From Candidatus Cloacimonadales bacterium (lineage in GTDB: Bacteria > Cloacimonadota > Cloacimonadia > Cloacimonadales > JAFGVF01): 64,000 nt of DNA. The DNA is taken from positions 1,952,001 to 2,016,000 of the forward strand of contig OY762964.1 of assembly GCA_963667035.1 (NCBI GenBank), in the 5' to 3' direction. Under the pieces are notes generated by a model. That model did not search any database, was not told the DNA's origin, and was given only the letters and a program-made list of their open reading frames with translations. Position numbers and translations under genes: made by a program. Shown here in pieces: positions 5,697-32,840 of this stretch (position 1 is the first letter of the stretch; each line of letters begins with the position of its first letter).

Positions 5697-8600
5697 TTAA
5701 GGTTTCAACTTCTTGATTGCTTTCTTATTTAGTACTGTAATCGGTTTTGCCGATTCATCTTCCCATTTGTATGACAGTATCAATTCATTAAGCTGATTCT
5801 TGTCAAATCCATGAGTACATCCGGTACAAATACCTTTTCCCATACGAGCTAGTTCAACCCAATAATCAACACTATTCTCTTCATCTTTTAACCATCCGGC
5901 TTGATGGAAGATATTGAGCATATCAGTCATCTTATTAGATTTCTTCACATTATGGAATACTGTCTTTCTGAATCCGTCTGCATAAGCAGAACCTTCCATT
6001 TCGAGATAGGTAGGTCTTGGTATAGCAACGTCAACATTATCGGGCTGGAATTGATTAATCGCAAGAGTAAACCCATTATCAACCTGAGGTGTTTCACCGT
6101 AGTATATAGCAAAATCTACTTTACTCTCGGAAACCGGTTTAACATCATTATACCTCATTCCTAGAGTATTTGAGAAGTTAGATGTTACCATTACACCTGA
6201 ACCTTTCGAGAAATCACAAATGGTTTTTGCTAATTTCCAGGTTAGTTTTGCAACTTTCTCAGAGACGTTGTCTCGATTGTATATAACAACCATCTTCTGA
6301 TTAAAGTCTATACAATTAGGTTCACACTTAGGTTTGTTCTCATAACAATCAAGTGTATGTTCAAGAGCGGTTTTAGGATTATACTTGGCATAGAAATCAA
6401 CCAATTTTGTGAATCCGATCTCTTCCTCATTAATCCAATATAGTTTCTTGCCTTTTAACTGTAAGTTTCTGAGTACACTTCTAAGCGAAAGGTTTATATC
6501 ACCGACAACATAAAAAGCATCAGTCTCCAGTAAGTCACTATATTGCTTAATAAAGCCTGCAGGGATCTCATCGGATATATCATTACATAATGAGAGTGAA
6601 CCTATTTCAGCTCCTATCCTGCTTGCGATAGTCTGAGTTAACGCTAACTCTTCCAGAGTAGCATCCGGAGAGACATAGAGCATTTTACTCTTTGCCGAAG
6701 AGCTTTTCTCTTGAAGCATTTGAGCAGTGAACGCAGGAATAGTCTCTTTGTTTTTATAAAGAGCAGTCTTCAAGCTATCATCAGCATCATAAGCCTGCCA
6801 ACCGAATCTACCGGCAAAGCAAATGTTTCTCAGATTATCTCCCTGTTCTTCAGGAGTCTCAATAAACTTTATCTTACCATCATAAGACTTAACGTTTATC
6901 TTACAGCCATTACCGCAAGAGCCACAGTTTTGAATAGTTTCCTCTGCTCCCTTAGGATTCATCTTATAATTTATATTCTTAGGAAGTAATGCTCCGACAG
7001 GACAGACTTCAATACATTTTCCGCATGTCTCACAGCTTGTCTCGGATAAGTCACCGCCGAATTCAGGAGCAACATAGGTTGGGAATCCTCTATAGATAAA
7101 TCCAAGCACTCCGGCTCCCTGAATCTCGGCACATACTCTTACGCAACGTCCGCATTTAACACATTTATTTGCATCATGTAGAATAAACGGATGTGTTGAC
7201 TCTACCGGATGCTTATTGCGACTTCCTGCGTATGCATAAGCATCAACACCATATTCAGTAGCATAGCGTCTTAAATCACATGTTTCATTAACCTGACATC
7301 CGCATTCAAGACAACGTTCAGCTTCTTTTATTCCGGATTCTCGTTCATAATCGAACTCAACCTCATTAAAAGTTGATACTCTTTCGTTTACAGGAAGTTC
7401 AGGCATTTTAACTTTATCTTTTTTCTCGAACTGCTCGAAATATTCAGGTTCAATGTCTTTTAATTTCTTCTCTTTCTTCGAATCAAATTGAACTACAGGA
7501 GCCATCATCTGACCTTGAAGGAAATTATCTATAGCATTGGCAGCTTTCTTACCATCAGCAATAGCTTCAACCGCAGTTGCAGGTCCTCGCTGGAAATCAC
7601 CGCCTGCAAAGATATTCTCAACACCCCAATACATTGTAACTTCATCTACAACAGCCGTTGACCACTTGGATACAGGCAACTGTTTGCCATTAATATAATT
7701 ATCTTCTTCACCGAGGAATGTAATCTCAGGGGCTTGAGAAACTGCCGCTATGATAGAATCAAACTGCACATCGAAAAATTCACCGGACGCTTGAGGTCTT
7801 CTTCTTCCACTGGCATCAGGTTCTCCAAGAACCATTTTCTCAAGCTTCACAGTCTCTAATCTACCATCTTTATTAGGAAGCAGTTTGGCAGGATTAGTTA
7901 AGAAAAGGAATTTTACTCCCTCTTCCTCTGCCGCATCAATTTCATATGATTCAGCAGGCATCTCATTACGAGTTCGTCTGTATATCAGAGTAGTATCGCA
8001 ACCAAGCCTTACGGCTGTTCTAGCACAATCTATCGCTGTATTTCCTCCACCGACTATAGCACATTTTTTACCTAAATCAGTCTTTTTACCTTTTACAGTA
8101 GCTTTAAGGAAATCAACTCCAAGATGTACTCCCTCAATATTCGAACCTTCAGTTCTGAGAGGGACAGCATTCAAAGCACCAAGTGCCATATAGACAGCAT
8201 CATATTCCTTTGCCAGTTCTGGTAATTTTATATCTCTACCGACAAATGTATTATACTGAATCTCCATTCCATTGGCACACATTAAATCTATTTCTTTCTG
8301 AAGAATCTCTTTAGGTAACCGATACTCGGGAATACCATATCTAAGCCAACCTCCGGCTTTATCTTCAGCTTCAAAGACTTTTACATCATAACCACGATTT
8401 GAGAGATAATATCCGGCAGATAAACCGGATGGTCCGCTACCAATGATAGCAACTTTCTTACCTTTAGACGGTGCTTTCTCAGGAACAAACGGATTCTCCA
8501 AATCAATATCTGCAGCATGACGCTTAAGCTGTCTGATAGCTATCGATTCATCGACAACCGACCTACGACACTCTTGCTCACAGAAAGCAGGACATACACG

Positions 8601-9029
8601 ACCTATTGACAATGGCATCGGTAAGTTTTCTTTTATTACTTTCACAGCTTCCGTATACTGCCCGTTTGCAATTAAAGAGACATAAGTCTGAACATCAACT
8701 CCGGCAGGACAAGCCACTTTACATGGGGCTTCACAATCTGCATAGTGATCGGAGAGAAGAAGCTCAAGAGCTGTTTTCCTCGCATCCATTACATCAGAAG
8801 AATTAGTTTCAATCTCCATACCTTCATAGATGTTAGTTCCGCAAGCAGTAACAAATCCGGGACGTCCTACCAGTTTTACTGCACACACCCAGCAAGAGCC
8901 AAAAGGTTTCAGTTCTTCATCATGACAAAGAGTAGGAACTTCAATTCCATGCTCATTACATACTGCAAGTATTGTCTTAGTACAATCTACCTGTATCTTT
9001 TTACCGTTTAATGTAATATTTATCATCAT
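5697..9029 (-). CDS. StnC-like large subunit: NuoG-type 2Fe-2S + GltD-like FAD/NADP domain + 4Fe-4S clusters + degenerate molybdopterin-like tail
   Basis: PTLCH..CWVC..TAC; CEAPCKVACPAG; GSGPSG; GGGNTAIDCAR; YRRT (NADP-type); CVKCGRCVRVC; CETCGKCIEVCPVG; CGSCGNGC. Confidence 0.85.
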   Translation of the reverse strand: MMINITLNGKKIQVDCTKTILAVCNEHGIEVPTLCHDEELKPFGSCWVCAVKLVGRPGFVTACGTNIYEGMEIETNSSDVMDARKTALELLLSDHYADCEAPCKVACPAGVDVQTYVSLIANGQYTEAVKVIKENLPMPLSIGRVCPAFCEQECRRSVVDESIAIRQLKRHAADIDLENPFVPEKAPSKGKKVAIIGSGPSGLSAGYYLSNRGYDVKVFEAEDKAGGWLRYGIPEYRLPKEILQKEIDLMCANGMEIQYNTFVGRDIKLPELAKEYDAVYMALGALNAVPLRTEGSNIEGVHLGVDFLKATVKGKKTDLGKKCAIVGGGNTAIDCARTAVRLGCDTTLIYRRTRNEMPAESYEIDAAEEEGVKFLFLTNPAKLLPNKDGRLETVKLEKMVLGEPDASGRRRPQASGEFFDVQFDSIIAAVSQAPEITFLGEEDNYINGKQLPVSKWSTAVVDEVTMYWGVENIFAGGDFQRGPATAVEAIADGKKAANAIDNFLQGQMMAPVVQFDSKKEKKLKDIEPEYFEQFEKKDKVKMPELPVNERVSTFNEVEFDYERESGIKEAERCLECGCQVNETCDLRRYATEYGVDAYAYAGSRNKHPVESTHPFILHDANKCVKCGRCVRVCAEIQGAGVLGFIYRGFPTYVAPEFGGDLSETSCETCGKCIEVCPVGALLPKNINYKMNPKGAEETIQNCGSCGNGCKINVKSYDGKIKFIETPEEQGDNLRNICFAGRFGWQAYDADDSLKTALYKNKETIPAFTAQMLQEKSSSAKSKMLYVSPDATLEELALTQTIASRIGAEIGSLSLCNDISDEIPAGFIKQYSDLLETDAFYVVGDINLSLRSVLRNLQLKGKKLYWINEEEIGFTKLVDFYAKYNPKTALEHTLDCYENKPKCEPNCIDFNQKMVVIYNRDNVSEKVAKLTWKLAKTICDFSKGSGVMVTSNFSNTLGMRYNDVKPVSESKVDFAIYYGETPQVDNGFTLAINQFQPDNVDVAIPRPTYLEMEGSAYADGFRKTVFHNVKKSNKMTDMLNIFHQAGWLKDEENSVDYWVELARMGKGICTGCTHGFDKNQLNELILSYKWEDESAKPITVLNKKAIKKLKP

Positions 9030-9038
9030 GCAACCCCT

Positions 9039-10808
9039 TTACACCTTTGATATTGCTTGGAAACGACAAGCATCGTAACAAGCTCCACATTTAATACATT
9101 TATCCTGGTCAATAACGTGTGGCTGTTTCACGGAACCACTTATTGCATCTGTAGGACATTTTCTGGCACAGGCGGTACAGCCTACGCATTTATCCGTAAT
9201 AACTTCATATTTGAGTAGAGCCGTGCAAACGCCTGCCGGACATCTCTTTTCTTTAATATGAGCTTCATATTCGTGTCTAAAATATTTAATTGTTGTAAGT
9301 ACAGGATTAGGAGCACTTTTACCCAATCCGCAAAGAGATGTGTTGATAATCTTATGTGAAAGCTCAAGAAGCTTATCAATATCTTCCATCTCACCTTTAC
9401 CTTCCGTAATACGGGTTAGAATCTCAAGCATTCGCTTGGTTCCAACTCTACAGAAAGTACATTTACCACATGATTCGTTCTGTGTGAAGTTTAGGAAAAA
9501 TCTTGCAATATCAACCATACAGGTTGAAGTATCCATCACAACCATACCACCCGAGCCCATGATTGCTCCGGTCTTGGTAATAGATTCGTAGTCAATGTGA
9601 GTATCAATCAATTCGGCAGGAATACATCCGCCTGAAGGTCCGCCAAGCTGAACTGCTTTGAATGGTTTCTCTTCCTTCATTCCACCACCGACTTTATAAA
9701 TAACGTCTCTAATTGTTAATCCCATCGGTACTTCTATGAGTCCGCTATTTCTGATTTTCCCCGCAAGAGCAAAGACTTTGGTTCCTTTACTTTTCTCAGT
9801 ACCGAATTTAGCATACTCCTCTGCTCCGTTGTATATAATCCAAGGTATGTTGGCATAGGTCTCAACGTTATTATTGTTGGTTGGTTTCTTCCATAGTCCC
9901 GATTGAGCCGGGAATGGCGGTCTTAAGCGAGGCATCCCTCGTTCACCTTCAATAGAAGCAATAAGAGCAGTTTCTTCACCGCAAACAAAGGCACCTGCAC
10001 CTTCCTTAACATGAAGGTCAAAGGAGAAGTCGGTTCCTAGAATATTATTACCTAAATACCCTTTTTCTTCCGCATCTTTTATAGCTTTCTTTAAGTGTTT
10101 AACTGCTAGCGGATATTCAGCACGACAGTATATATAGCCTTCATCCGCACCTATAGTATAAGCACAAATTGCCATGCCTTCAAGAATACTGTGTGGATCA
10201 CCTTCAAGCACAGAGCGATCCATGAAAGCTCCCGGATCACCTTCATCGGCATTACAGATCACATACTTCTTCTTATTCTTTGCATCATAGGCAAACTGCC
10301 ATTTCATACCGGTACTGAATCCGGCACCACCTCTACCTCGAAGACCTGATTTCTTAATCTCATCAATAACCTCGGTAGCTTTCATCTCTTTGATTACTTT
10401 TTCGAGAGCTTTATAACCGCTATTAGCAAGATAATAATTAAGATTCTCAGGGTCAATCACACCGCAGTTTCTAAGGACGATGCGTTCTTGTGCCTGATAA
10501 GTAGCGTTTTCCGCACATTCGTAGTCCTGAGATATGATTGCTTTTTGCAGAAGAGGTTTTCCTTCCAGAATACCTTCTATTATTTCGGGCATATCTTTAG
10601 GTTCAAGATAACCGTAAGTTATGCTCTGATTGTTTCCATATTTAAATTCGACTACCGGTTCGGCAAAACACATTCCGATACATCCGGTTTTCTCCAACAC
10701 GGCATCATAATTGTTCTTTTTAATCAGGGTCTCGACTTCCTGATATATATCCCCGGCACCGGCTGCAAGTCCGCAACTGGCAACTCCCACTTTAATTGTA
10801 ATAGCCAT
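9039..10808 (-). CDS. NuoF/HydB-like FMN/NADH-binding Fe-S subunit (StnB/BfuB type)
   Basis: GLRGRGGAGF, CNADEGDPGAFMDR, FVCGEETAL, ESCGKCTFCRVG, N-terminal thioredoxin-like 2Fe-2S domain, C-terminal 2x4Fe-4S. Confidence 0.92.
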   Translation of the reverse strand: MAITIKVGVASCGLAAGAGDIYQEVETLIKKNNYDAVLEKTGCIGMCFAEPVVEFKYGNNQSITYGYLEPKDMPEIIEGILEGKPLLQKAIISQDYECAENATYQAQERIVLRNCGVIDPENLNYYLANSGYKALEKVIKEMKATEVIDEIKKSGLRGRGGAGFSTGMKWQFAYDAKNKKKYVICNADEGDPGAFMDRSVLEGDPHSILEGMAICAYTIGADEGYIYCRAEYPLAVKHLKKAIKDAEEKGYLGNNILGTDFSFDLHVKEGAGAFVCGEETALIASIEGERGMPRLRPPFPAQSGLWKKPTNNNNVETYANIPWIIYNGAEEYAKFGTEKSKGTKVFALAGKIRNSGLIEVPMGLTIRDVIYKVGGGMKEEKPFKAVQLGGPSGGCIPAELIDTHIDYESITKTGAIMGSGGMVVMDTSTCMVDIARFFLNFTQNESCGKCTFCRVGTKRMLEILTRITEGKGEMEDIDKLLELSHKIINTSLCGLGKSAPNPVLTTIKYFRHEYEAHIKEKRCPAGVCTALLKYEVITDKCVGCTACARKCPTDAISGSVKQPHVIDQDKCIKCGACYDACRFQAISKV

Positions 10809-11390: not shown

Positions 11391-12794
<1,404 letters not shown>

Positions 12795-13023
12795 TTATGC
12801 ATCTTCGACAAACTTTTATTCACCTGTAAACTAATGGGATATAACAGGTTATATTTTATAAAAAACTTTTCTCTTGCCATGTTATGCTGACTTATTTTTT
12901 TAGCAGATTTATTTATTGAGCTTATCACACTCTAGTGTTGGGATTTTTCTATGTTTTTACTACTATTTTTCCGATGAATCCGGTGGTTTTGCGGAACAAT
13001 TCTTGGGTTAATATTAATAATAT

Positions 13024-13631
13024 TGTTCCGAATTTAACTCAGATTATTCAACCACGTTGTGGTTGTTTTGTTTATGGTGTTCATATACCCCGAATTACAT
13101 TCGGGGCTACTCAGATGTAACCACTTCGTGGTTGCAATACATATGGATTAGGAGAGTTGCAATATATGTAGTGCAAGTCCCCCCACTTGCACATAGCTCA
13201 AAGAGCTATTCATAGATAGCGTCTTTTTTAGTTACCAATACTACGCGACTTAGTTTACCATTTATCTTAAAAATCTATTCATCCACTTCTAATCCCAACG
13301 GGATTAAATATGAGTAGCCATGCATGAAATGCATGGTTACTAGCCTAAAAGTGTCGACCCCAAAGTGGGTCGAATATCTACAGTATTATCAAAGCTAGCG
13401 TCTATAAAAGTTTACTAGTACAACGTAAAGCGATTAGACCATGTTCCGATTAAAACTAAGATTATTCAACCACGTTGTGGTTGTTTTATTTATGGTGTCC
13501 CTAAACCCGAATTGCATTCGGGGCTATTCAGAGGTAATCCCATTCGGGATTGCAATACATGTGGTACAGGAGAGTTACAATGTATGTAGTGCAAGTGCCT
13601 CACTTGCACATAGCGATTAGACCATGTTCCG
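13024..13631. repeat. Cluster of three-hairpin REP/REPIN-like elements (forward, inverted, forward)
   Basis: ~170-bp similar copies at ~13024-13197 and ~13442-13614; inverted structural homolog at 13291-13377; 20-bp direct repeats at 13429-13448 and 13612-13631. Confidence 0.8.
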
Positions 13632-13839
13632 CTTGGAGTCGAACTCCCACCGGTCGTTTGGACTCGAGCTAAAGACTGTAAACATCCTTTTATATATACT
13701 AGTTCCCCCCTTTTTTACATTTTGCATCTTTCATTTTGCTTTTTCTCCTAACTCATATTCCTCTCTCTACTCTCAGCAGTAACAATTGCTTTAAAATCAA
13801 TTTTAACTTATTAATAAATTAGCCACTTCTTGGTAATTA

Positions 13840-13894
13840 ACCCAAGGATTACCCAAGTGTTTCACAAGGGTTTCACAAGTGTCTCACAGGAATT
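13840..13894. repeat. Five tandem imperfect 11-bp units
   Basis: acccaaggatt acccaagtgtt tcacaagggtt tcacaagtgtc tcacaggaatt. Confidence 0.75.
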
Positions 13895-14026
13895 ACTGCC
13901 GGGAGATGAGAGAGAAATGAGGTTGATTAGCTTGATTTAATAGCTTTTAGGACAAAAGTTAAAAAGTTGCTTGACCTAAATACAATTTACTTATACTCAA
14001 ACATTAAAAATGAAGAGGAGCATTTT

Positions 14027-17000
14027 ATGATAGAGAAAATGAATAGAGAAACCAAAGTTCGTTTCGGGTTATTCCTCAATTATGCAGAGCATAACATTGT
14101 TATTGTACTGCAATTCATACATGATATATTACTCAAACAGTGGAAGAAGTGTATTGATGTAGATAGTTCAAAACCGTTTGAATCTGACTTGCTACAACGC
14201 TTAGAGTACACTGACTTCCAGCAAATGGAACAAACGCTAAGTCTCATTAACAAACACTTTCCTTTTCTGGGAAAAATGATAGATTCTAACAAATTAGACA
14301 ATCTGAGCTTAGAAGGAAAAGCTAAGCGAGCTTCAGAAAATCTTATCTTATTGCTTAAAGCAGTACATGAGTTGAGAAATCAATGTAGTCATGAGTCGTA
14401 TGATTTAACAGGAGAAGAAACCCTCTTATCAAAAGATGATATAGAAACTATCCGTTACAGACTAAACAGGGTATTTGATGCATCGGTGGATGAGGCAAAG
14501 AGACGATTCTTTGCTCCGGATAAAACTGATGATGAGATAGAAAAAGACCTTAACCATCTAAGAAGATATATTTCCGTAAACAAGAAACGAGAAGATAATC
14601 CTGCTTTCAAATACAGGATTGTTGAAAACGAAGAGCTAACAATTAATGGAATTGCTTATATAACTTCCCTATTTTTAGAAAAAAGAGAAGCATATCTATT
14701 GCTTAACAGTCTTTCCGGGTTTAAAGAAAACAGAACTGATTGGTCCAGGTTAACAAAAGAGTGTTACACAGTTTATAGGATGCAACTTCCTCGTTCACAA
14801 GTAACCTCAAACTATGGGAAAGAGGGTTTGTTACTTGAAATGGTCAGTGAATTAATAAAATGCCCCCATGAGATATTCAAGCATCTTTCTGAGGAAGAGA
14901 GGAATAGGTTTGAGCCAAATCTCCAAAATGATGCTAGTGATTCAGAAGATGAGAATGAAAATGTTCTTAAAAGATACAATGACCGCTTTACTTATCTTGC
15001 CCTTAGATATATTGATGATAATAATCTGTTTGAGAACATTAGGTTCCAGATAGATTTGGGACGGTACTATAAAGAAAGCTACGATAAAACAACAATCAGT
15101 GGTGAGAGAGTGAATCGCAACTTGACCAAAAGGCTCACAACCTTCGGTAGATTGAAAGAAGTAAAGGATATAGTAGTTAAAGATTGGAATGATATAACCA
15201 AATCCACTACCGATAATCCTGTTCCACCATATAGAACAGATACTGTTCCTCACTATCATATAGTTAACAATCAGATTGCATTAAAGATAAATGAAACCGG
15301 TTTACCAAATCTTAGTGAATCAATAAAGCTATCTACACCTGATGCTTGGATTAGTGCTTATGACTTACCCGGGCTTATCTATATTGGTATTATCTCTAAT
15401 GATTTTAAAAGTCTCGAGAATAAAATCATTGGATATATAAAACAAACCTGGAAGAAGTTTGCTTCTGTGGCAGATGGAGAGAAGGACTTAGATGATATAT
15501 CATTACCACTGAAACATACACTCAAAGCTTTAAATAATAACAATGAGATTCTTTTTAGAAAGAAGAAACATGCTCAGATATTTGAAGAAACTGAGAATCT
15601 GCTAAAGAGCTATGACAATAGGGTAGAGAAATTACAAGATAGAAAAACAAAGCCTAAAGATAAAAAGAAGTATCAGATAAGGGCAGGTATTCTTGCGGAT
15701 TATTTGGCTAAGGATATGGTTAAGATGCAACCCTATTCACCTGAAAAGCAAGGAAAAGACAAGATTACTTCGATTAACTTCCGTTCCTTACAATCTAATC
15801 TTGCTTTCTTTGGGAGTAGCAAAGATAGCCTTAAGGAAGTCTTCCAAAGAGCAGGTCTCATCGCAAGAGTAAATCAGCACCCTTTCCTCTCAAAGATAAA
15901 CCCTTCCGACTACTCGGCAATCGGTCCATTTTATAAGAAATATCTGCTTTCAAAAATTGAGTTCTTGGAGAAATGTCAGAGGAATGATGACTATTCTCAT
16001 GTTACTTTTAAACCGACAAGAAACAAGTATTCCGACTCCAGAGGTTCTATAAAAGAAGTAGCTGAAAGACTGAGTCATTCTCCAGTAAATATCAACTCTG
16101 AGTTCTTTCTTAATCTTCTGAAGCAAGAGCTTCCTTCAATTACTAACGAAAGAATGAATCTGTCTTGGCTGATTAAAAAACATTATAACAAACAAGGATT
16201 CGAGCTTCAAGATATATATTCTAAGCCCAAGAGTTATGAACTTCATAAGAAAGTGGGGAACTATATTTCAAAGAATAAAGGGATAAGAAGACAACTAGAA
16301 GAAATATCTAATTGTAATAACTGTTTTGAAGCTCGCAAACTTGTTAAAGCATTGCCTGAACTTGAGTATAATCCTCCAACTTTAAAGCAAACACTCCTTA
16401 AACTTTGTCAGGACTTCAACAAGAATGAGAAATTAATCCGTTTTAGAGAGTTACAGGATATTGTGATGATTACAATGGTGAATGAGCTGATAAAAGAGAT
16501 TATGACTAATCCGGAAGATGAATTTAAACCTATTCGACTTGAAAGCTTAACTCCGGAGAATACGGATCCTCTTAACAACCCTATTGACACAACTCTTAGC
16601 ATTTGTCTTGAAGAAGTTAAGAAAAAAAAGAAAGATAAGGCTAATTATGTTATCAAACAGTTTGAGATAAAGAATGTTAAGATTAAGAACCTTGGTAAGT
16701 ATAAGCGTTATCAACATGATAAAAGATTAATCGGATTAACCTCTTGGATGGGACAGGAACCCTATAACTTCGATACTGTTATTAAAGAGCTAGAGGACTT
16801 TGATAGATACAAAATAGAGATTGCACTTAAGCTAAACGAGTTTGAAAAGGAGATGTTGAAAAAATACGATGGTTTTAAGGCTACAAAAGGGAATGGGTGC
16901 AGATTCGTAGGATTTAAGGAGTATACTGATAAATATAAGAAAGAGTTTGATAAAGAGAATGCGGAGCTGTTAAAAGATATCCGAAATAGAATTTATCATA

Positions 17001-17128
17001 ATGCTTTTCCTAATAAAACAATTCTTAATAATCTGACTATACATAATGAAATAGCTATGGAAATTAAGGATTTTGTGATAGATTTAGTGGATAAAATGCT
17101 CAAAAAACTCAAGGAAAAGGAGGAATAA
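14027..17128 (+). CDS. cas13b: Type VI-B CRISPR RNA-guided ribonuclease, Cas13b-like (~1033 aa)
   Basis: Two terminal HEPN RxxxxH motifs (RNQCSH nt 14375-14392; RNRIYH nt 16982-16999). Cas13b-like blocks LEMVSELIKCP, DRFTYLALRYIDD..FENIRFQIDLG, GILADYLAKDMVKMQP, KITSINFRSLQ, HPFL. Adjacent 36-nt repeat array. ATG 14027 is preceded by GAGGAG (the ORF track starts at TTG 13967). Confidence 0.9.
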   Translation: MIEKMNRETKVRFGLFLNYAEHNIVIVLQFIHDILLKQWKKCIDVDSSKPFESDLLQRLEYTDFQQMEQTLSLINKHFPFLGKMIDSNKLDNLSLEGKAKRASENLILLLKAVHELRNQCSHESYDLTGEETLLSKDDIETIRYRLNRVFDASVDEAKRRFFAPDKTDDEIEKDLNHLRRYISVNKKREDNPAFKYRIVENEELTINGIAYITSLFLEKREAYLLLNSLSGFKENRTDWSRLTKECYTVYRMQLPRSQVTSNYGKEGLLLEMVSELIKCPHEIFKHLSEEERNRFEPNLQNDASDSEDENENVLKRYNDRFTYLALRYIDDNNLFENIRFQIDLGRYYKESYDKTTISGERVNRNLTKRLTTFGRLKEVKDIVVKDWNDITKSTTDNPVPPYRTDTVPHYHIVNNQIALKINETGLPNLSESIKLSTPDAWISAYDLPGLIYIGIISNDFKSLENKIIGYIKQTWKKFASVADGEKDLDDISLPLKHTLKALNNNNEILFRKKKHAQIFEETENLLKSYDNRVEKLQDRKTKPKDKKKYQIRAGILADYLAKDMVKMQPYSPEKQGKDKITSINFRSLQSNLAFFGSSKDSLKEVFQRAGLIARVNQHPFLSKINPSDYSAIGPFYKKYLLSKIEFLEKCQRNDDYSHVTFKPTRNKYSDSRGSIKEVAERLSHSPVNINSEFFLNLLKQELPSITNERMNLSWLIKKHYNKQGFELQDIYSKPKSYELHKKVGNYISKNKGIRRQLEEISNCNNCFEARKLVKALPELEYNPPTLKQTLLKLCQDFNKNEKLIRFRELQDIVMITMVNELIKEIMTNPEDEFKPIRLESLTPENTDPLNNPIDTTLSICLEEVKKKKKDKANYVIKQFEIKNVKIKNLGKYKRYQHDKRLIGLTSWMGQEPYNFDTVIKELEDFDRYKIEIALKLNEFEKEMLKKYDGFKATKGNGCRFVGFKEYTDKYKKEFDKENAELLKDIRNRIYHNAFPNKTILNNLTIHNEIAMEIKDFVIDLVDKMLKKLKEKEE

Positions 17129-17202
17129 TATGCAAAATGAAGTGAAGTATTCATGGTTTTGCATCTCTAATCCCATGTGTTTTATAGCTTTACAAAAAGC
17201 CT

Positions 17203-17571
17203 GTTACAGTACCCTCTGTTTTGGAGTCGGAGTGTAACTACTACCTGCATCAAACCACCCAATAAGTGTGTTACAGTACCCTCTGTTTTGGAGTCGGAGT
17301 GTAACACCGTTACTGATGAAGAGGATACAATCGTTGTTACAGTACCCTCTGTTTTGGAGTCGGAGTGTAACGGAACTGATCCCTTTATAAGATACAAAGT
17401 TGGTTACAGTGCCCTCTGTTTTGGAGTCGGAGTGTAACGGCAATATTCAACGAAGCTAGCAACTTCTAAGTTACAGTGCCCTCTGTTTTGGAGTCGGAAT
17501 GTAACTACTTGGACCGCAAGCATCCTTGCTTGCATATTACATTGCTCTCTACTATTGAATCGGATTATAGC
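17203..17571 (+). CRISPR. CRISPR array: 5 intact repeats, 1 degenerate repeat, 5 spacers
   Basis: Repeat GTTACAGTACCCTCTGTTTTGGAGTCGGAGTGTAAC (36 nt) at 17203, 17270, 17336, 17403 (1 mismatch), 17470 (2 mismatches); degenerate copy at 17536-17571; unique spacers of 31, 30, 31, 31, 30 nt. Strand is inferred. Confidence 0.97.
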
Positions 17572-17773
17572 ATTATCAATATGACACAGACTATTAGCAT
17601 ACTCCGAAGTGGGAGTTTAGGAGGATGCAATTATTGACAGGGATTATCGGACATAGTCACTCTTGATAGGCAGAAATTAATACTATTTTTACTTGACATC
17701 TGACAGAACAAGATTGCATTTATTCGTGCAGGCTCAATTTGAGTGAAAAAGAAAAAAGTAGGTAATTTATTCG

Positions 17774-18916
17774 ATGAGAATCCCATTTAATATTCCATTT
17801 TTAACCGGAAAAGAGAGTGAATACATTCAAGAAGCATTGAATAGTAAAAGGCATTGCGGAAATCACGCTTTTGCTAGAAGAGTAATCTCTCACATGCAAG
17901 CACAACACGGACTTGGAGAGGTCTTCCTCACACCATCCGGAACTGCCGCTTTAGAGATGGGAGCATTGCTAGCCGATATTAAAGAAGGAGACGAGGTGAT
18001 TGTCCCCTCTTATACATTCAGCTCCACAGCTAATGCAATAGTGCTTAGAAATGCTACTCCGGTATTTTGCGAAATAAATCCCAAAACAATGAATATAGAT
18101 GTTGATAGAATTGAGGAGTTGATAACTCCCAGAACTAAGCTGATAGTTCCGATAGATTATGCAGGTATACCTTGCGAGATAGATAGAGTTATGGAAATTG
18201 CCAAGAAACATAATCTTTTGGTGATGCATGACACCGCTCAATCATACGGTTCTTTCTATAAAGGCAAAGCCACCGGTAGTTGGGCTGACTTTGCGACGTT
18301 CAGTTTTCATGAAACAAAGAACATTACTTGCGGTGAAGGCGGAGCTTTAGTTATCAATAATCCTAAATTCGTGCAAAGAGCTCATTTCTTACAAGAGAAA
18401 GGAACAGACAGATCACTGGTATTAAGCGGTGTAAAAAGTAAATATCATTGGGTTGATTTAGGCTCAAGTTTCTTATTGGCAGACATCTTATCCGCTCAGC
18501 TCTATGCTCAAATGGAAGCGGAAAACGCTATCTTTGCAAAAAGAAAGACTGTGTTTGATGCTTACAGTAAACTATATGAACCTTACGAATTGAAAGGCTA
18601 CATCTCTATTCCTCATCTTAACGATGATATGGCTATTAACTACCATGCCTTCTGGGTTATATTTGATAAACCGCAATCCAGAGATAAGTTCATAGAGTTA
18701 CTAAAACAAGATGAAGTTTATGCTTATATTGGCTACATGCCGTTACACTCAGCCCCAATGGGTCAAAGATACGGTTATACCAAAGAGAGTTTGCCTATCA
18801 CGGAAGATATTGCTACCAGATTAGTGAGACTACCACTATATGCGGATATGGCTGATGAAGAATTGGATTACTGTCTGAGTGCTATGCAAAAGGTGATTGA
18901 GAAGCTTTATGATTAA
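17774..18916 (+). CDS. wecE: dTDP-4-amino-4,6-dideoxygalactose transaminase-like (DegT/DnrJ/EryC1/StrS family)
   Basis: TPSGTAALEM, PSYTFSSTANA, FSFHETKNITCGEGGAL, EKGTDRS, WVDLGSS. Confidence 0.88.
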   Translation: MRIPFNIPFLTGKESEYIQEALNSKRHCGNHAFARRVISHMQAQHGLGEVFLTPSGTAALEMGALLADIKEGDEVIVPSYTFSSTANAIVLRNATPVFCEINPKTMNIDVDRIEELITPRTKLIVPIDYAGIPCEIDRVMEIAKKHNLLVMHDTAQSYGSFYKGKATGSWADFATFSFHETKNITCGEGGALVINNPKFVQRAHFLQEKGTDRSLVLSGVKSKYHWVDLGSSFLLADILSAQLYAQMEAENAIFAKRKTVFDAYSKLYEPYELKGYISIPHLNDDMAINYHAFWVIFDKPQSRDKFIELLKQDEVYAYIGYMPLHSAPMGQRYGYTKESLPITEDIATRLVRLPLYADMADEELDYCLSAMQKVIEKLYD

Positions 18917-20402
18917 TATTGATAACCTTAGAAAAGAGCTGAAATCCATTCTCTTTTATGAGGATAACGATATAAATCTTGATTTACTGATTTCCGCCCA
19001 GATTGAGAACTCACCCGTTTCATCGGTATCAGAGTTGAAAACATGGCTCAGGAATCTTAATAGTAAGCAACTGTTTGACGTAAAGCAGGTTCCGCTTACC
19101 GAGATGAAACAATGGATTTGGGATAAAGAAATCGGAGAGATTAAACATAAATCCGGCGGGTTCTTCAGAATTAGAGGTTTACACCTTGATTCGCAATACA
19201 AAGAAGAAAGAAGCTGGGATCAACCGATTATATTCCAACCCGAGATTGGTATACTCGGATTTATCGTTAAGAAAATCAATGGTATTCTTCACTTCCTGAT
19301 TCAAGCAAAGGCGGAACCGGGGAATATCAACACCTTTCAACTTTCCCCTACCGTACAGGCAACAAGAAGTAATTTTCTCAGATTGCACGGAGGAAAGAAA
19401 ACAACTTTTCTGGAATACTTTAACGGGGATAAAAAAGCTCGAGTTATCCTGGACAGATTTCAAAGTGAACAAGGTACCAGATTCTATAATAAAAGAAATC
19501 GTAATATAGTTGTTCTGGTTGATGAAAACGAGCAAATTGATCCGGGAGATAACTTCAGATGGATGAGCCTCGGACAAATCATCCATTTTAACCAATTCGA
19601 TAATCATGTTAATATGGATACAAGAAGTATTATCTCATGCTTGAATCTGCTACCTGAGAAACCGGTATCTCTGAACCGAGTTGACCGTGAGAATCTTAGA
19701 GATTGCTTGAATAGCAACGGTTTTGAAGATGAGATTTCGGAATATGCTTTAAACAATATTGTTTCAGCACATCCCAACACAACAACACTTAAATCAATTA
19801 ATCAACATATAAGTAATTTTACTAACGAACGTTATAAATGTATTATAAACAAATCCTTTATACCTTTGCAGGATATGAAGGAATGGAAGACATCCGATTA
19901 CTCGATTAAGCGTCCCGATAATAGATTCTATGAGATTATGGGAGTGGAAGTTGAAGCAAGTCATAGAGAGGTTGTCCGGTGGGATCAACCGATAGTTAAG
20001 CAAAGTAATCATGGTGTTATTGCCTTACTTTCAACTATGATTAATGGTACTTGCTATTATCTTGTACAGTTTAAGATGGAGTGTGGACTCATCGATAATA
20101 TGGAGATGGCTCCTACTATTCAGTGTATTCCTACTAACTACCGGAATCCTGAGTCTATTCCTTTTATGAACTATGTGAATAGCGATAATTCAATCCTTAG
20201 CGATGCTATGCAGAGTGAAGAAGGTGGACGATTCTTCAGAGAAGAGAATAGAAACATGATTATTAATGTAAACAATTTACCTGAATTCGATGAGTCGGTG
20301 TTCGCTTTGATGTCTTTGGCACAGCTCAAACATTTCTCGCTGTTTGCTTCGACTTTGAATATAGAACTGAGAAGTGTGATTTCAACAATTAAATGGAGGT
20401 AA
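18909..20402 (+). CDS. NDP-hexose 2,3-dehydratase (EvaA/OleV/EryBVI family)
   Basis: Duplicated domain; WDQPII twice, QPEIGILG, QAKAEPGN, QLSPTVQATRSN, QSEQG..F, QSEEGGRF; ATG 18909 overlaps the upstream gene end. Confidence 0.9.
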   Translation: MINIDNLRKELKSILFYEDNDINLDLLISAQIENSPVSSVSELKTWLRNLNSKQLFDVKQVPLTEMKQWIWDKEIGEIKHKSGGFFRIRGLHLDSQYKEERSWDQPIIFQPEIGILGFIVKKINGILHFLIQAKAEPGNINTFQLSPTVQATRSNFLRLHGGKKTTFLEYFNGDKKARVILDRFQSEQGTRFYNKRNRNIVVLVDENEQIDPGDNFRWMSLGQIIHFNQFDNHVNMDTRSIISCLNLLPEKPVSLNRVDRENLRDCLNSNGFEDEISEYALNNIVSAHPNTTTLKSINQHISNFTNERYKCIINKSFIPLQDMKEWKTSDYSIKRPDNRFYEIMGVEVEASHREVVRWDQPIVKQSNHGVIALLSTMINGTCYYLVQFKMECGLIDNMEMAPTIQCIPTNYRNPESIPFMNYVNSDNSILSDAMQSEEGGRFFREENRNMIINVNNLPEFDESVFALMSLAQLKHFSLFASTLNIELRSVISTIKWR

Positions 20403-20408
20403 CCCTTT

Positions 20409-21380
20409 ATGCCTAAAGTGAGAATGGGAGTAATAGGACTTGGATATGTGGCTCTAAGAAGTGTTATTCCTGCCATGTCTGCCCATAGTGATATTGATAT
20501 TATTGTTTTTTATGATATAGATGGTGATAAATGCCGTAAATATGCAGAGGAATTCAATTGCCGTAGTAGTAAAACTATCGATGATTTCTTTGAGAATGAG
20601 ATTGATGTTGTATACATCTCTACTCCGACAGGGACACATTTTGATTTGGCTATGAAAGCTGCAGAGAAAGGGATTCATATTCTTTGTGAGAAATCAATGA
20701 CAGGCTCCTATGATGAAACACAAAAGCTTGTGGAATTCTGCAAAGCTAAGAAAGTGGCGATTCTGGAAGGCTTCATGTATCAACACCACACCCAGCACGC
20801 TTATGTTAGAGATATAATCTCAGAAGGTGTAATAGGAGATGTAATACATCTCTATGCTTCATTTGGCTTCCCGCCTCTACCAGAAGATAATTTCCGATTT
20901 AATAAAGCACTCGGAGGAGGAGCTCTCCTTGATGCAGGTGCTTATACGGTGCACTTCTGTAGAAACTTCTTTGAGCAGGAACCTGTATCCATCAAATCTG
21001 TTATTCACTATAATGATAAAGGACTCGATATTCACGGAAATGTAATCATGGATTTTGAGAATAATCGTTCTGCAAGCATGGTTTACGGTTTCAATAACTT
21101 CTATCAGAACAGTTATATTGTTTGGGGAACTAAAGGTAAACTCACTCTGGTAAGAGCTTTCTCACTTCCTAAAGATTTTGCGTCAACTTTGACAATTGAG
21201 ACTCATGGAGAGAAAACCGAGCTTGCGATGGCTCCATGTGACCATTTTGCCAAAGAAATTGATTATCTTATAAATAACTTATATAATGAATCAGAGGTCA
21301 ATCGTTGGTATGACGATGCTCTGGCACAAGCTTTAACCCTCAGTAAAATCATTAATAACGGAGAATGTAATGAAGACTAA
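20409..21380 (+). CDS. Gfo/Idh/MocA oxidoreductase, probable NDP-hexose 3-ketoreductase
   Basis: GVIGLG, HILCEKS, FGFPP, LGGGALLDAGAY; directly downstream of the 2,3-dehydratase. Confidence 0.8.
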   Translation: MPKVRMGVIGLGYVALRSVIPAMSAHSDIDIIVFYDIDGDKCRKYAEEFNCRSSKTIDDFFENEIDVVYISTPTGTHFDLAMKAAEKGIHILCEKSMTGSYDETQKLVEFCKAKKVAILEGFMYQHHTQHAYVRDIISEGVIGDVIHLYASFGFPPLPEDNFRFNKALGGGALLDAGAYTVHFCRNFFEQEPVSIKSVIHYNDKGLDIHGNVIMDFENNRSASMVYGFNNFYQNSYIVWGTKGKLTLVRAFSLPKDFASTLTIETHGEKTELAMAPCDHFAKEIDYLINNLYNESEVNRWYDDALAQALTLSKIINNGECNED

Positions 21381-22242
21381 AGGTATAATTTTAGCCGGTG
21401 GTTCCGGATCCCGTCTCTACCCTATCACAAAAATCTATTCAAAACAATTGGTGGCAATCTACGACAAACCGATGATTTACTATCCTCTTTCTACATTGAT
21501 TATGGCTGGAATAAGAGAAATCCTCATTATCTCTAATGAAGAAACGTTACCTTGGTATAAAGAACTATTCGGTGACGGTTCACACATTGGACTATCTATA
21601 GAGTATGCCTTGCAATCCCAACCGAAGGGTATTGCCGAAGCATTTATCATTGGTGAAGAGTTCATTGGTGATGATAATGTAGTACTCATTCTTGGTGACA
21701 ATATATTCTATGGCTACCTGAATTTCTTGCGTAAAGGTATTGAAGATAACGTAGATGCTACAGTGTTCGGCTACTATGTCTCTGACCCTGAAAGATACGG
21801 TGTTGTAGAGTTTGATGAGAATATGAAAGCTGTATCACTTGAAGAAAAGCCTGCTGAGCCTAAATCAAATTACGCTGTTCCGGGATTGTATATCTATAAT
21901 TCAAAGGTAGTTGAGATTGCTAAAAATATAAAGCCGTCTCCTAGAGGTGAACTTGAGATTACTGATGTTAATAAAGTATACTTACAGAATAATCAGCTTA
22001 GAGTCCGTCTTTTAGGACGTGGTATAGCGTGGCTAGATTCAGGAACTCCAGACTCTCTACTAGAAGCTTCCAGCTTTATCGCTGCTGTCGAAAAAAGACA
22101 GGGTTTGAAGATTGGCTGTATTGAAGAAGCAGCTTACAATAAAGGCTTTATTGATTTAGAGCAAATTAGGAAAGTCATCAATGACCTTCCGAATTGTTAC
22201 TATAGAGATTACTTAAAGAAAGTTATCTTAGAAAAGAAATAG
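21370..22242 (+). CDS. rfbA: Glucose-1-phosphate thymidylyltransferase
   Basis: GIILAGGSGSRLYP, YDKPMIYYPL, LILGDNIF, EEKP, RGELEITD. Confidence 0.95.
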   Translation: MKTKGIILAGGSGSRLYPITKIYSKQLVAIYDKPMIYYPLSTLIMAGIREILIISNEETLPWYKELFGDGSHIGLSIEYALQSQPKGIAEAFIIGEEFIGDDNVVLILGDNIFYGYLNFLRKGIEDNVDATVFGYYVSDPERYGVVEFDENMKAVSLEEKPAEPKSNYAVPGLYIYNSKVVEIAKNIKPSPRGELEITDVNKVYLQNNQLRVRLLGRGIAWLDSGTPDSLLEASSFIAAVEKRQGLKIGCIEEAAYNKGFIDLEQIRKVINDLPNCYYRDYLKKVILEKK

Positions 22243-22257
22243 TATTTCACAAATAAC

Positions 22258-22287
22258 AAAAGGGAACCGAATCGGTTCCCTTTTTTT
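22258..22287 (+). terminator. Intrinsic terminator after rfbA
   Basis: AAAAGGGAACCG-AAT-CGGTTCCC-T7. Confidence 0.8.
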
Positions 22288-24863: not shown

Positions 24864-24981
24864 AGATGGCGGCGATCTACTCTCCCACATCGTTGCCAAT
24901 GCAGTACCATCGACGCTGGTGAGCTTAACTGCTGTGTTCGGAATGGGTACAGGTGTATCATCACCGCAATTGCCACCATCT
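24864..24981 (-). rRNA. rrf: 5S rRNA
   Basis: Conserved ACACCTGTACCCATTCCGAACACAGCAGTTAAGC..GATGGTACT..GGGAGAGTAG on the minus strand; ends approximate. Confidence 0.95.
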
Positions 24982-25031
24982 TCAGCCGCTGCTTTGCGAC
25001 TATATTTGCTGGGATAGAGTATATAAAGTTT

Positions 25032-27906
<2,875 letters not shown>

Positions 27907-27961
27907 GAATATCCTCTATACACTCTATCCCACGTATTTCACTTTGTTAGATCTAAAAATA

Positions 27962-28037
27962 TGGTGGAGGTTAACGGGATCGAACCGTTGACCGCCTGCT
28001 TGCAAAGCAGGTGCTCTCCCAGCTGAGCTAAACCCCC
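27962..28037 (-). tRNA. tRNA-Ala(TGC)
   Basis: GGGGGTTTAGCTCAG..TTTGCAA..GGTTCGATCC..CCACCA, 76 nt, G3:U70 pair. Confidence 0.97.
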
Positions 28038-28043
28038 AAATGC

Positions 28044-28120
<77 letters not shown>

Positions 28121-28222
28121 ACTATATTTTGCTTAAAATTTATAAAAGTGAGTGAACAACTTACCGAACATTAATTATTGCAATGGAATCTGATTAAAAG
28201 ATTCATCGCTTTATACACCTTT

Positions 28223-29769
<1,547 letters not shown>

Positions 29770-30915: not shown

Positions 30916-31673
30916 AGCAAAAGATAGATTTTGAAGAAAAGGTAATCTCTAAAGTAATGGTTATACGTTCAGAAATACCGGAGACCGGAGGTCGTAAATT
31001 ACAGGAGCATCTTCTTGACCCTGAATATGGAGTTCCAATCACAGTTGGACGCGATAAGCTTTTTGATATACTCAGAGCTCATGGTTTGATGTTTAAACAT
31101 AAGCCTCGTAAGGTATATACATCTGTCTCTGACCCGGATCATCAAGTATATCCAAATTTATTAGAGAATCTGACAGTAACTCGACCTAATCAGGTTTGGG
31201 TAACAGATATAACCTATTTGCAGTTAGTAAATAGCAAGCATTGCTATCTATCAATAATGACAGACTATTACAGTCGTAAGATTGTTGGTTTTACAGTACA
31301 GAAAGACATGACGGCAGAAAGTACACTTGCAACCTTCAATAAAGCTTATAAGAGTATCAAGCCTGCACCCGGCTTGATACACCACTCTGATAAAGGTTCT
31401 CAATACACTTCAGGAATCTATACTAATCGATTGCAAGAGTGTGGAGTAGATATAAGCATGACCGGTCCTAACAAATGCTACGACAATGCGATAGCCGAGA
31501 GAATCAATAGGACTCTAAAGTATGAGTTTTATTTGAGAGATAAATTCAGAGATATAGAACAAGCTAGGAAAGTAGTCGCCGATGCAGTTTATCTTTACAA
31601 CAATAAACGCTTGCATTGTGCACTAAAGCTTAAAACACCTAATGAATTTTATAATAAGGCACTTGCATCTTAG
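30783..31673 (+). CDS. IS3 OrfB DDE transposase, expressed through a -1 frameshift
   Basis: The -1 frame is open from the slippery site (..CKALGCSRKSYY..); PNQVWVTDITY, HHSDKGSQY, YDNAIAERINRTLK. Confidence 0.88.
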   Translation, partial: KERIRAVDTSKNQRTRERTRIGVQASCKALGCSRKSYYKEKKVLEQKIDFEEKVISKVMVIRSEIPETGGRKLQEHLLDPEYGVPITVGRDKLFDILRAHGLMFKHKPRKVYTSVSDPDHQVYPNLLENLTVTRPNQVWVTDITYLQLVNSKHCYLSIMTDYYSRKIVGFTVQKDMTAESTLATFNKAYKSIKPAPGLIHHSDKGSQYTSGIYTNRLQECGVDISMTGPNKCYDNAIAERINRTLKYEFYLRDKFRDIEQARKVVADAVYLYNNKRLHCALKLKTPNEFYNKALAS

Positions 31674-31721
31674 TCATGCAAGTAAAACCATATTGTGGAC
31701 AACTTTCGTTCTTTAGAGAAC

Positions 31722-32840
31722 TTATCCATGATAAAAAGTGTCTACCTGCATCAGGACTTTACAAAAAATGGTGGGAGGTAACCCTTTAAAGTATCCAGTT
31801 TTGTAATTAGCAAGAAAATTCTTTCTAAAAGAGTCGCAGAATATGGGGATAAAGCATAAATCAGCAGTTTTAGCCTTAAGTCCATATTCTGCGACTAACT
31901 CAACGGGGGCCTTGTTACCTCTAGTCCTGATTTTACGAATATGGTTGTAGTAAGTCTGATATATGAAGACTTTACTAATGAAAGATATAATGTCTCTAAA
32001 CTCTTCATAATCATATAATTCTTGTTCTATGGTGTTGTGAAAGCTTTCTACATCACTGTTGAATGTTGGAGATTTTGGAGGTATACGAACATGAGTTACT
32101 CCATGCTTGTTTAAGATCTCTTCAAAGATTGTGACTCTACTATGAAGAGGTTCAATAAATTCAGTACCGTTATCTGTTTGGAAAGTAATATCATTAGGAG
32201 AGCAATGTAACCCTTTTAGGTATTCAATTACGTAATCCGCAAAAATGGCAGTTGAGAGATCATCTTTATAGTTTGTAAAGCCTAGAAATACCATTCCTGT
32301 CTTGTAATCTCTGGCAGTAATCTGAAACATAGGTATTGCACCGGACTCATATGCTCTACTCTGTTTAGCAATATCATTTAGATATTTAACATCGAGCTGA
32401 AGTTTCTGCATAGGCTTATAGTGTGCTCTTACAGCTGACATATCTTTCTTTTTCTTGTATCTTGTTTTTCTTTTCAGAACAAGCTTATGTCTCTTTAATA
32501 CCTTATGAACGGTCTTTGCTGAGTAATGCAGTTTCAGATTATTTACTATAGTGCGAGCTCCGGGATTGCCACGATCTTTACGTTCTTTGATGATAGCATC
32601 TTCAATATCTTTTGGCATCTTCAGAGGATGTTCCTGACCAACCCTGGACTTATTCTCGAGACCTGCCTCTCCAAGCTCAAGATACCTATTTCTCCAGAGA
32701 CGAACAGTCTTTCTGGTTGTGCCTAACATCCTAGCTGTTTCAGATATGCCATGCTGCATTGAAAGAGTATACATCTGATACCGTAAAAGAGTTCTTGACT
32801 TAAATTCTTTACTGAGTAATCTCATCTCTAAGTATGACAT
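31722..32840 (-). CDS. DDE transposase (HTH + rve), IS481-like
   Basis: N-terminal HTH, LQLDVKY, FQTDNGTEF, NSDVESFHNTIEQE, YNHIR. Confidence 0.85.
   Translation of the reverse strand: MSYLEMRLLSKEFKSRTLLRYQMYTLSMQHGISETARMLGTTRKTVRLWRNRYLELGEAGLENKSRVGQEHPLKMPKDIEDAIIKERKDRGNPGARTIVNNLKLHYSAKTVHKVLKRHKLVLKRKTRYKKKKDMSAVRAHYKPMQKLQLDVKYLNDIAKQSRAYESGAIPMFQITARDYKTGMVFLGFTNYKDDLSTAIFADYVIEYLKGLHCSPNDITFQTDNGTEFIEPLHSRVTIFEEILNKHGVTHVRIPPKSPTFNSDVESFHNTIEQELYDYEEFRDIISFISKVFIYQTYYNHIRKIRTRGNKAPVELVAEYGLKAKTADLCFIPIFCDSFRKNFLANYKTGYFKGLPPTIFCKVLMQVDTFYHG

Follow-up and report, generated by a model that had tools for sequence, protein, structure and literature searches.

The absence of cas1 and cas2 is a defining trait of type VI-B loci in the description of these CRISPR systems by Smargon et al. 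(10.1101/092577), in which about 80% of loci carry an accessory gene and about 20% carry none. A VI-B branch without both accessories also appears in PMC11662929, the updated CRISPR-Cas classification (PMC12669027) emphasizes how widely Cas13b systems vary in effector size and in accessory genes, and a 2026 preprint (PMC13692257) names further deep Cas13b lineages. PbuCas13b of Prevotella buccae (6DTD, VI-B2) belongs to the csx28-associated branch (10.1101/092577), and the VI-B system of Flavobacterium columnare, which consists of cas13b and an array only, uses the Cas1 of a co-resident type II-C system in trans, as was shown experimentally (PMC8092290). Here we describe a cas13b gene with its CRISPR array in a 64,000-nt stretch of a Candidatus Cloacimonadales bacterium genome (GCA_963667035.1, contig OY762964.1, positions 1,952,001 to 2,016,000, forward strand), which we call the window. 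A first-pass annotation, made from the sequence alone, had proposed that the locus is a minimal, stand-alone, Cas13b-like (type VI-B) system. We consider, with a probability of roughly three in four, that it is a VI-B locus of cas13b and a short array only, acquired horizontally and lacking Csx28, whose newest spacer matches a resident prophage and whose spacers are provided in trans by type II-C acquisition. The features of the locus, in window coordinates, are as follows.

14015..14020, + strand: Shine-Dalgarno-like GAGGAG, 6 nt ahead of the ATG at 14027 (read from the sequence)
14027..17128, + strand: cas13b, intact, 1033 aa (long frame 13967/14027-17128; NCBIfam, PADLOC, phmmer, AlphaFold2 and Foldseek)
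14375..14392, + strand: HEPN-1 motif RNQCSH (R117, H122), residues 117-122 (motif search and 41-sequence alignment)
16982..16999, + strand: HEPN-2 motif RNRIYH (R986, H991), residues 986-991 (motif search and 41-sequence alignment)
17129..17202, + strand: leader, the 74 nt between the cas13b stop codon and repeat 1, ending in AAAGCCT at the repeat junction
17203..17505, + strand: CRISPR array, five 36-nt repeats and the four intervening spacers
17239..17269, + strand: spacer 1, leader-proximal, 31 nt, with a 31/31 match to a resident prophage gene
17506..17571, + strand: fifth spacer-like stretch (30 nt) and degenerate terminal repeat

The open reading frame (ORF) starting at ATG 14027 encodes, as first proposed, a protein of 1033 aa with an intact HEPN motif near each terminus. 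The pattern R[NHQ]xxxH occurs in it exactly twice, and in an alignment of 41 sequences R117, H122 and R986 were invariant and H991 was kept in at least 90% of rows. The NCBIfam equivalog model NF038190 (VI_Cas13b) matched with 584.2 bits against a cut-off of 150, spanning residues 8-1013 and model positions 3-1056 of 1066, and two PADLOC Cas13b models scored 549 and 474 bits. The NCBIfam models for Cas12k and Cas13d did not match; nor did any Pfam model, which is uninformative since both NCBIfam and PADLOC match. When compared with the PDB by phmmer, the protein was most similar to PbuCas13b (6dtd, E 1.8e-57), followed by PspCas13b (1.1e-42), BzCas13b (2.2e-13) and Cas13bt3 (8e-6). An AlphaFold2 model built from the 41-sequence alignment had a mean pLDDT (predicted local distance difference test) of 83.4 and a pTM (predicted template modelling score) of 0.73. 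Foldseek returned 12 PDB matches at E <= 0.001 for this model, of which ranks 1-7 were Cas13b chains (E 7e-41 to 2e-23, template modelling scores of about 0.45-0.52), followed by Cas13h1 and then Cas13bt3 (E 2e-13). The best chain was 6dtd (E 7e-41), so the structural comparison with PbuCas13b that the first-pass annotation had called for came out in favor of its assignment, in agreement with the NCBIfam, PADLOC and phmmer results. Since profile, motifs, predicted fold and the array features given below all correspond to this family, we conclude from sequence and structural modeling that the protein is a genuine Cas13b and the locus type VI-B. By family membership, it would be expected to cleave single-stranded RNA under the guidance of CRISPR RNA (crRNA), to have collateral activity, and to process precursor crRNA independently of its HEPN domains. 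A search of the whole genome with the Cas13b model found a single copy. PbuCas13b, the best solved match by both sequence and fold, likewise has a HEPN pair at its termini, a 36-nt repeat and spacers of about 30 nt, yet it is only about 22% identical in the structural alignment, is longer (1127 aa), is csx28-associated, and comes from a Bacteroidota rather than a Cloacimonadota host.

The array begins 74 bp after the gene and has 36-nt repeats and 30-31-nt spacers, just as the first-pass annotation described it. Its repeats start at 17203, 17270, 17336, 17403 and 17470, with 0, 0, 0, 1 and 2 mismatches to the first, and a degenerate sixth at 17536-17571 has 12 mismatches in 36; the spacers are, in order, 31, 30, 31, 31 and 30 nt long. 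It is thus a short array, with five good repeats and one degenerate one, and the fifth spacer, which is similar to dispersed palindromic sequence, is possibly no genuine spacer. The repeat was found nowhere else in the 3.1-Mb genome. Complementary repeat ends, a U-rich loop, spacers of about 30 nt and co-orientation with cas13b agree with the array features listed for VI-B (36-nt repeats, complementary ends, U-rich loop; 10.1101/092577). A terminal stem of 6 bp forms when the repeat is folded; the z-score of this single-repeat fold is only -1.57. Three of the six terminal-stem pairs differ on both sides from those in the repeat of the Planctomycetota relatives introduced below, with pairing retained; this comparison of five sequences is effectively one independent contrast, but it outweighs the single-repeat z-score and argues that the crRNA handle co-evolved with the protein. 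Scans for sigma-70 promoters and terminators gave 14 sites against 14.1 expected and 1 against 2.6 expected, respectively, and are uninformative.

To place the protein among its relatives, one genome per prokaryotic species was searched with a 5-sequence alignment, which yielded eight loci. The four closest, at 33-35% identity, lie in Planctomycetota metagenome-assembled genomes (MAGs) of Pirellulales (L031), Anaerohalosphaeraceae (L032), Phycisphaerales (L033) and Sedimentisphaerales (L034); the four others are from Bacteroidota, at 26-28%. In a FastTree phylogeny of 145 proteins, which was limited to lengths of 950-1350 aa and included neither L037 nor the broken gene of L034, the query was sister, with an SH-like support of 99, to a 7-row clade of three Planctomycetota MAG proteins and four metagenome proteins. 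Members of this clade are 57-67% identical to one another, whereas the query is 33-37% identical to them and has a terminal branch of 1.11 against a median of 0.63. The phylogenetic and profile comparison suggested by the first-pass annotation therefore upheld a divergent Cas13b, while the nearest relatives turned out to be Planctomycetota loci that carry csx28. In all four of these, cas13b is followed by a co-oriented array with 36-nt repeats and 30-nt spacers, and between gene and array stands a 185-190-aa gene that matches the PADLOC Csx28 model (E 1e-29 to 3e-38). The query locus has the same order of cas13b and co-oriented array and a related repeat with the same terminal stem, but the space taken by csx28 in the relatives is reduced to 74 bp, and its GC content is 34% rather than 45-56%.

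We found no sign that the accessory gene is encoded elsewhere. The PADLOC Csx28 model gave no match at E <= 1 in the closed query chromosome, and a profile made from the Csx28 proteins of the four relatives retrieved at best a 13-bit fragment in the query genome (E 0.076) with two internal stops. For Csx27, the sole PADLOC match was partial, scored 18 bits and lay 1.66 Mb away, at a threshold where 6 of 14 control genomes are matched as well. The absence of csx27 and csx28 reported for the window thus extends to the genome. By its grouping with a csx28-bearing clade, in a tree without a named VI-B1/VI-B2 reference set and hence tied only indirectly to the published branches, the effector is VI-B2-type and its partner Csx28 is missing. 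The idea of an accessory-free Cas13b lineage therefore stands as far as this locus is concerned, whereas the architecture itself is not new: minimal VI-B loci have already been described (10.1101/092577; PMC8092290; PMC11662929).

Two observations on the relatives may be recorded separately. In L034, cas13b (5938-9206) is split into ORFs of 213, 347 and 409 aa next to an intact csx28 and array, and is either a pseudogene or affected by assembly errors. In L032, a type IIG restriction-modification enzyme (L032:14-3115, PADLOC E 6e-209) lies directly upstream of cas13b, which gives this locus the look of a defense island.

The protein is indeed divergent, with at most 37% identity to any sequence found. 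A HMMER scan of 1.84 billion cluster representatives gave 683 relatives at E <= 0.001, the best at 36% identity, and a word-indexed search of 5.8 billion proteins gave a best identity of 34%. It is a singleton at the 50% identity level, although the whole family is comparably diverse. Its size, by contrast, does not mark out an intermediate lineage as the first-pass annotation had held. The full-length representatives listed in the HMMER scan include proteins of 984, 988, 999, 1025, 1031, 1035, 1038, 1039, 1040 and 1044 aa, and because 984-1045 aa is a common length among full-length representatives and the NCBIfam model spans 1066 positions, 1033 aa is ordinary. The compact VI-B3 proteins Cas13bt/Cas13X (7VTI) are distant homologs (the phmmer and Foldseek E-values for Cas13bt3 are given above), but they have only about 775-800 aa and are far less similar to the query than full-size Cas13b is. 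On representative sizes and this weak similarity to Cas13bt3, we rejected a size intermediate between Cas13b and Cas13bt.

The gene is present in at least one other population, since contigs from a sequencing run of a different study (X4) are 93-96% identical to parts of it. Among 24 listed in-gene differences between X4 and the query, which are the best-supported subset only, 18 affect the third base of a codon (binomial p 3.6e-5) and 13 leave the amino acid unchanged, which points to purifying selection on cas13b. Another run with the same species label (X5, other study) had no match on the stretch, which is not proof of absence. Among public runs, none of RNA was listed as covering the locus.

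Next, we asked what the spacers match. BLAST of all five against the genome gave one full match, in which spacer 1 is identical over 31/31 positions to G000:C1:1659761-1659791 on the query chromosome. This site is within a 716-aa minus-strand ORF that matches the MuA-like transposase family phrog_310 (E 2e-88) and is accompanied by a MuB-like gene (phrog_296) and a divergent CI-like (S24) repressor. The element, at G000:C1 ~1641000-1663500, also encodes small and large terminase subunits, a portal/minor head protein, a head protease, neck proteins, a major head protein and an amidase, and its gene content identifies it as a Mu-like prophage. Its transposase gene occurs in a single copy, has no counterpart in the three other genomes of the genus at E <= 1e-20, and is at most 38% identical to its family relatives. 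Since the + strand of the array has the sequence of the + strand of the target site, where the transposase is encoded on the minus strand, a crRNA of spacer 1 made from the + strand would be antisense to the transposase mRNA. Reading the array in this direction is supported by the degenerate repeat at its cas13b-distal end and by the four relatives, all of whose arrays are co-oriented with cas13b and have the same repeat polarity. It also agrees with published practice, in which repeats are taken in cas13b orientation with crRNAs of 5'-spacer/3'-repeat form (10.1101/092577) and VI-B arrays are transcribed from leader to array (Hoikkala et al., PMC8092290). The flanks of the target RNA are A on the 5' side and GGA on the 3' side, consistent with the protospacer flanking site (PFS) rule of BzCas13b (5' D, 3' NAN/NNA; 10.1101/092577).

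Other searches with the spacers were negative. No exact match to any of spacers 1-4 was present in viral_contigs, or to spacer 2 or the repeat pattern in metagenome_contigs, and a distant blastn of the array against a phage collection gave chance-level hits only (E 0.1 and 4). None of the 13 II-C or 10 III-D spacers of the same genome matched elsewhere in it.

The match of spacer 1 could be an accident: prophage DNA taken up from the cell's own chromosome, without a role and neutral because the target is never effectively met. An antisense orientation has, after all, an even chance of arising without selection. The target, however, belongs to a strain-specific mobile element and not to a housekeeping gene; the transposase is absent from the three same-genus genomes, and the flanks follow the published PFS rule (10.1101/092577). 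We regard an accident as somewhat unlikely, but it is the rival that fares best.

A second rival holds that the whole locus is a decaying, non-functional remnant, in which csx28 has been lost, acquisition has stopped, the effector is unexpressed or inactive, and the self-matching spacer is tolerated since the system is dead. The missing csx28, present in all four nearest genomic relatives, would fit this, as would an array of only five spacers in which repeats 4, 5 and 6 have 1, 2 and 12 mismatches; the neighboring I-B system described below is visibly decaying, and the split cas13b of L034 indicates that such decay occurs in the clade. On the other hand, the reading frame of 1033 aa is unbroken and retains every residue that is invariant in the family, the X4 divergence is biased to third positions (18/24), the repeat stem shows compensatory changes, and the first three repeats are identical, with the self-matching spacer at the leader-proximal end. 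Accessory-free Cas13b is, furthermore, active in published systems (10.1101/092577), and partial protection by Cas13b6 alone is reported in PMC13692257. A dead locus is therefore unlikely in our view.

The first-pass annotation had also called the system stand-alone. Within the window this is correct, since the models for cas1, cas2, csx27 and csx28 matched none of the 37 large and 16 small flanking ORFs scanned; it does not apply to the genome, which has type I-B, III-D and II-C systems with three cas1-cas2 pairs. The I-B operon (G000:C1:1941849-1950042; L008 7849-16042) contains cas6, cas8b, cas7, cas5, cas3, cas1, cas2 and cas4 and ends ~2 kb before the window. Its cas3 is split (641 + 123 aa), its cas1 contains a TAA stop and its cas2 a TAG stop, and no array was detected beside it; these broken genes, ~17 kb upstream, are the cas1 and cas2 nearest to cas13b. 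The III-D locus (L009, G000:C1:385635-397298) encodes an 855-aa fusion of reverse transcriptase and Cas1 (RT-Cas1), Cas2 and a CARF-HEPN protein, and has two arrays with 36-nt repeats, near 384.9-385.2 kb and 398.0-398.4 kb, which have one conserved flank in common. The II-C system has Cas9 (1056 aa), Cas1, Cas2 and an array (L010, G000:C1:1033079-1033907) of 13 36-nt repeats with spacers of 30-31 nt. Its Cas9 is native to the phylum, where 39 of 232 genomes have it, two of the three in the genus among them. Two side observations belong here: one 30-nt spacer of the II-C array occurs twice, as the third and the seventh on the + strand, and a 472-aa minus-strand ORF between the I-B operon and the window (G000:C1:1950567-1951985; L008:16567-17985) matches a Pycsar cyclase (PycC, E 1e-23) and may be a defense gene.

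When both are read from leader to array (II-C from its cas2-proximal flank), the II-C and VI-B repeats are identical at 21 of 36 positions, a value reached by 7 of 200,000 shuffles. The sequence AAAGCCT ends both leaders and is kept in the II-C leader of the sister species (G113). Since the II-C and VI-B arrays are alike in repeat length, spacer size, repeat sequence and leader end, while III-D spacers differ and the I-B genes are broken, the resident II-C Cas1-Cas2 probably inserts the VI-B spacers in trans, an assignment made from sequence likeness and by analogy with F. columnare. The F. columnare locus (PMC8092290) resembles ours in having cas13b and an array only, with neither csx27/28 nor cas1/2, and a co-resident II-C system with equal 36-nt repeats. 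It differs in its Bacteroidota host, in that the account there gives no similarity at the leader-repeat junction where ours has the shared AAAGCCT, and in that acquisition in trans is experimental there. Insertion by the III-D RT-Cas1/Cas2, possibly straight from RNA, is improbable: the genome has the intact fusion and its Cas2, such modules are known to serve VI-B (PMC11662929) and the III-D repeat is also 36 nt long, but III-D spacers are 31-41 nt rather than 30-31 nt, its repeat, read from the conserved flank (the presumed leader, minus strand), is identical to the VI-B repeat at only 13 of 36 positions against 21 for II-C, and the leader ends differ.

The placement of the locus between gdhA with its repeats and a sugar operon, as given by the first-pass annotation, was confirmed, and its surroundings bear on where cas13b came from.

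11391-12752, - strand: gdhA
12753-14026, no strand assigned: dispersed-repeat mosaic of 1.2 kb, several short-repeat families with dozens of genome copies, including a 418-bp tandem duplication
13608..13943, + strand: dispersed intergenic repeat immediately 5' of cas13b, a possible promoter carrier
12949..17674, no strand assigned: 4.7-kb segment (dispersed repeats, cas13b, array) without counterpart at the syntenic G113 positions; synteny breakpoint

The genome contains the repeat at 13608-13943 five more times, with 76-87% identity, and four of these copies are upstream of an unrelated + oriented ORF; the unit next to cas13b that recurs in this way is 200-350 bp long. The operon downstream of the array encodes a DegT protein, an NDP-hexose dehydratase, an oxidoreductase and a nucleotidyltransferase. 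In the sister species G113, gdhA is 94% identical and the gdhA-side block aligns with contig C4 up to window position 12948 only, while the sugar-operon block (~window 17675-22285) is on a different contig, C2, at 74% identity. Because synteny with G113 ends on both sides, the segment 12949-17674 is genome-specific and lies at a rearrangement junction. The Cas13b model matched one of 232 species-level Cloacimonadota genomes, the query itself (0 of the 231 others), one of 151 high-quality genomes of the phylum, and none of three other genomes of the genus. Taking together an effector that groups with Planctomycetota VI-B2 loci, its sole occurrence among 232 genomes of the phylum and the absence of the segment from the sister species, we conclude from these comparisons that cas13b is horizontally acquired. 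The host is Cloacimonadota rather than Bacteroidota, as had been suspected: its DnaK is 93% identical to the nearest neighbor, and of the 120 best DnaK hits 15 have an organism name, which for 14 of them is Cloacimonadota or Cloacimonetes (Candidatus Zophobacter franzmannii, for example, at 85%) and for the fifteenth a eukaryote.

Several other genes in the window may be mentioned. A complete rRNA operon (16S, two tRNAs, 23S and 5S; 24864-29769, - strand) is ~7 kb downstream of the array. Insertion sequence genes at 30957-32840 and 43121-44599 comprise two rve-type integrases and a DDE_Tnp_1 transposase. A gingipain-like C25 peptidase of 1676 aa with a type-IX-secretion tail is encoded at 33387-38417 (- strand), and there are four more Por_Secre_tail/FlgD_ig proteins.

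In the explanation we favor, the array would be transcribed from the leader at 17129-17202 on the + strand, and Cas13b would cut the transcript into crRNAs of ~66 nt, each with a 5' spacer and a 3' 36-nt repeat handle. Pairing with a complementary RNA would bring R117/H122 and R986/H991 together as an RNase that cuts both the target and collateral RNA, and this would halt the infected cell. The early operon is repressed in phage Mu lysogens. The lysogen would likewise be tolerated while the early operon of the prophage is repressed, and Cas13b would fire on prophage induction or on infection by a related phage, with new spacers being inserted in trans by the resident II-C Cas1-Cas2.

Several points weigh against this explanation. 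We infer the direction of transcription, the processing of crRNA and the RNase activity alike. Csx28 is reported to be required for robust VI-B2 immunity (10.1101/2021.11.02.466367), so that loss of csx28 may leave weak or no defense, and the array is short with repeats 4-6 decaying. A target is known for only one of five spacers, spacers 2-4 being without the viral_contigs matches and spacer 2 without the metagenome_contigs match noted above; the antisense orientation of spacer 1 is a 1-in-2 event, and a self-targeting spacer is also tolerable to an inactive system. Regarding acquisition, the leaders of the Planctomycetota relatives have related ends (the leader of L032 ends in GTTACGAAAGGACT and that of the query in TTTACAAAAAGCCT), and part of the likeness to the II-C leader end may therefore be ancestral to the VI-B clade. 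The II-C spacers of the sister species had no match to the query genome, and the search for a II-C protospacer, from which to derive a protospacer-adjacent motif, found none. Finally, the GC content of the locus (34%) is host-like, so either the transfer was not recent or the donor was AT-rich.

One may go further and suppose that a VI-B2 Cas13b from a Planctomycetota pool shed Csx28, was wired to the native II-C adaptation machinery by its similar leader end and its repeat and spacer lengths, and now guards against the prophage through a crRNA to its transposase mRNA, with the lysogen tolerated as long as that operon is silent and induction as the trigger for Cas13b; the loss of Csx28 may even be what makes a self-directed guide affordable. 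We put this forward as a speculation that we think has a minority chance of being right.

Our understanding of what Cas13b is remains unchanged by this locus. It stands out by the phylum of its host, by having lost csx28 although it belongs with a clade that carries this gene, and by a natural guide directed at a prophage of the same chromosome. In full-text searches, no paper combined Cas13b with Cloacimonadota or Cloacimonetes, although supplementary tables may list relatives, and in the relevant passages of PMC12669027 the mentions of Cas13b and of Planctomycet* are unrelated. The locus extends the known host range of VI-B and, combined with those of Planctomycetota, suggests that a Cas13b clade bearing csx28 exists outside Bacteroidota. 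As a fairly small (1033 aa) and divergent ortholog, the protein is a candidate RNA-targeting tool that can be screened. The similarities between the II-C and VI-B arrays provide a second, phylogenetically distant candidate for spacer acquisition across types, and the leader-proximal guide together with the resident Mu-like transposase gene offers a concrete test case for conditional tolerance by type VI systems.

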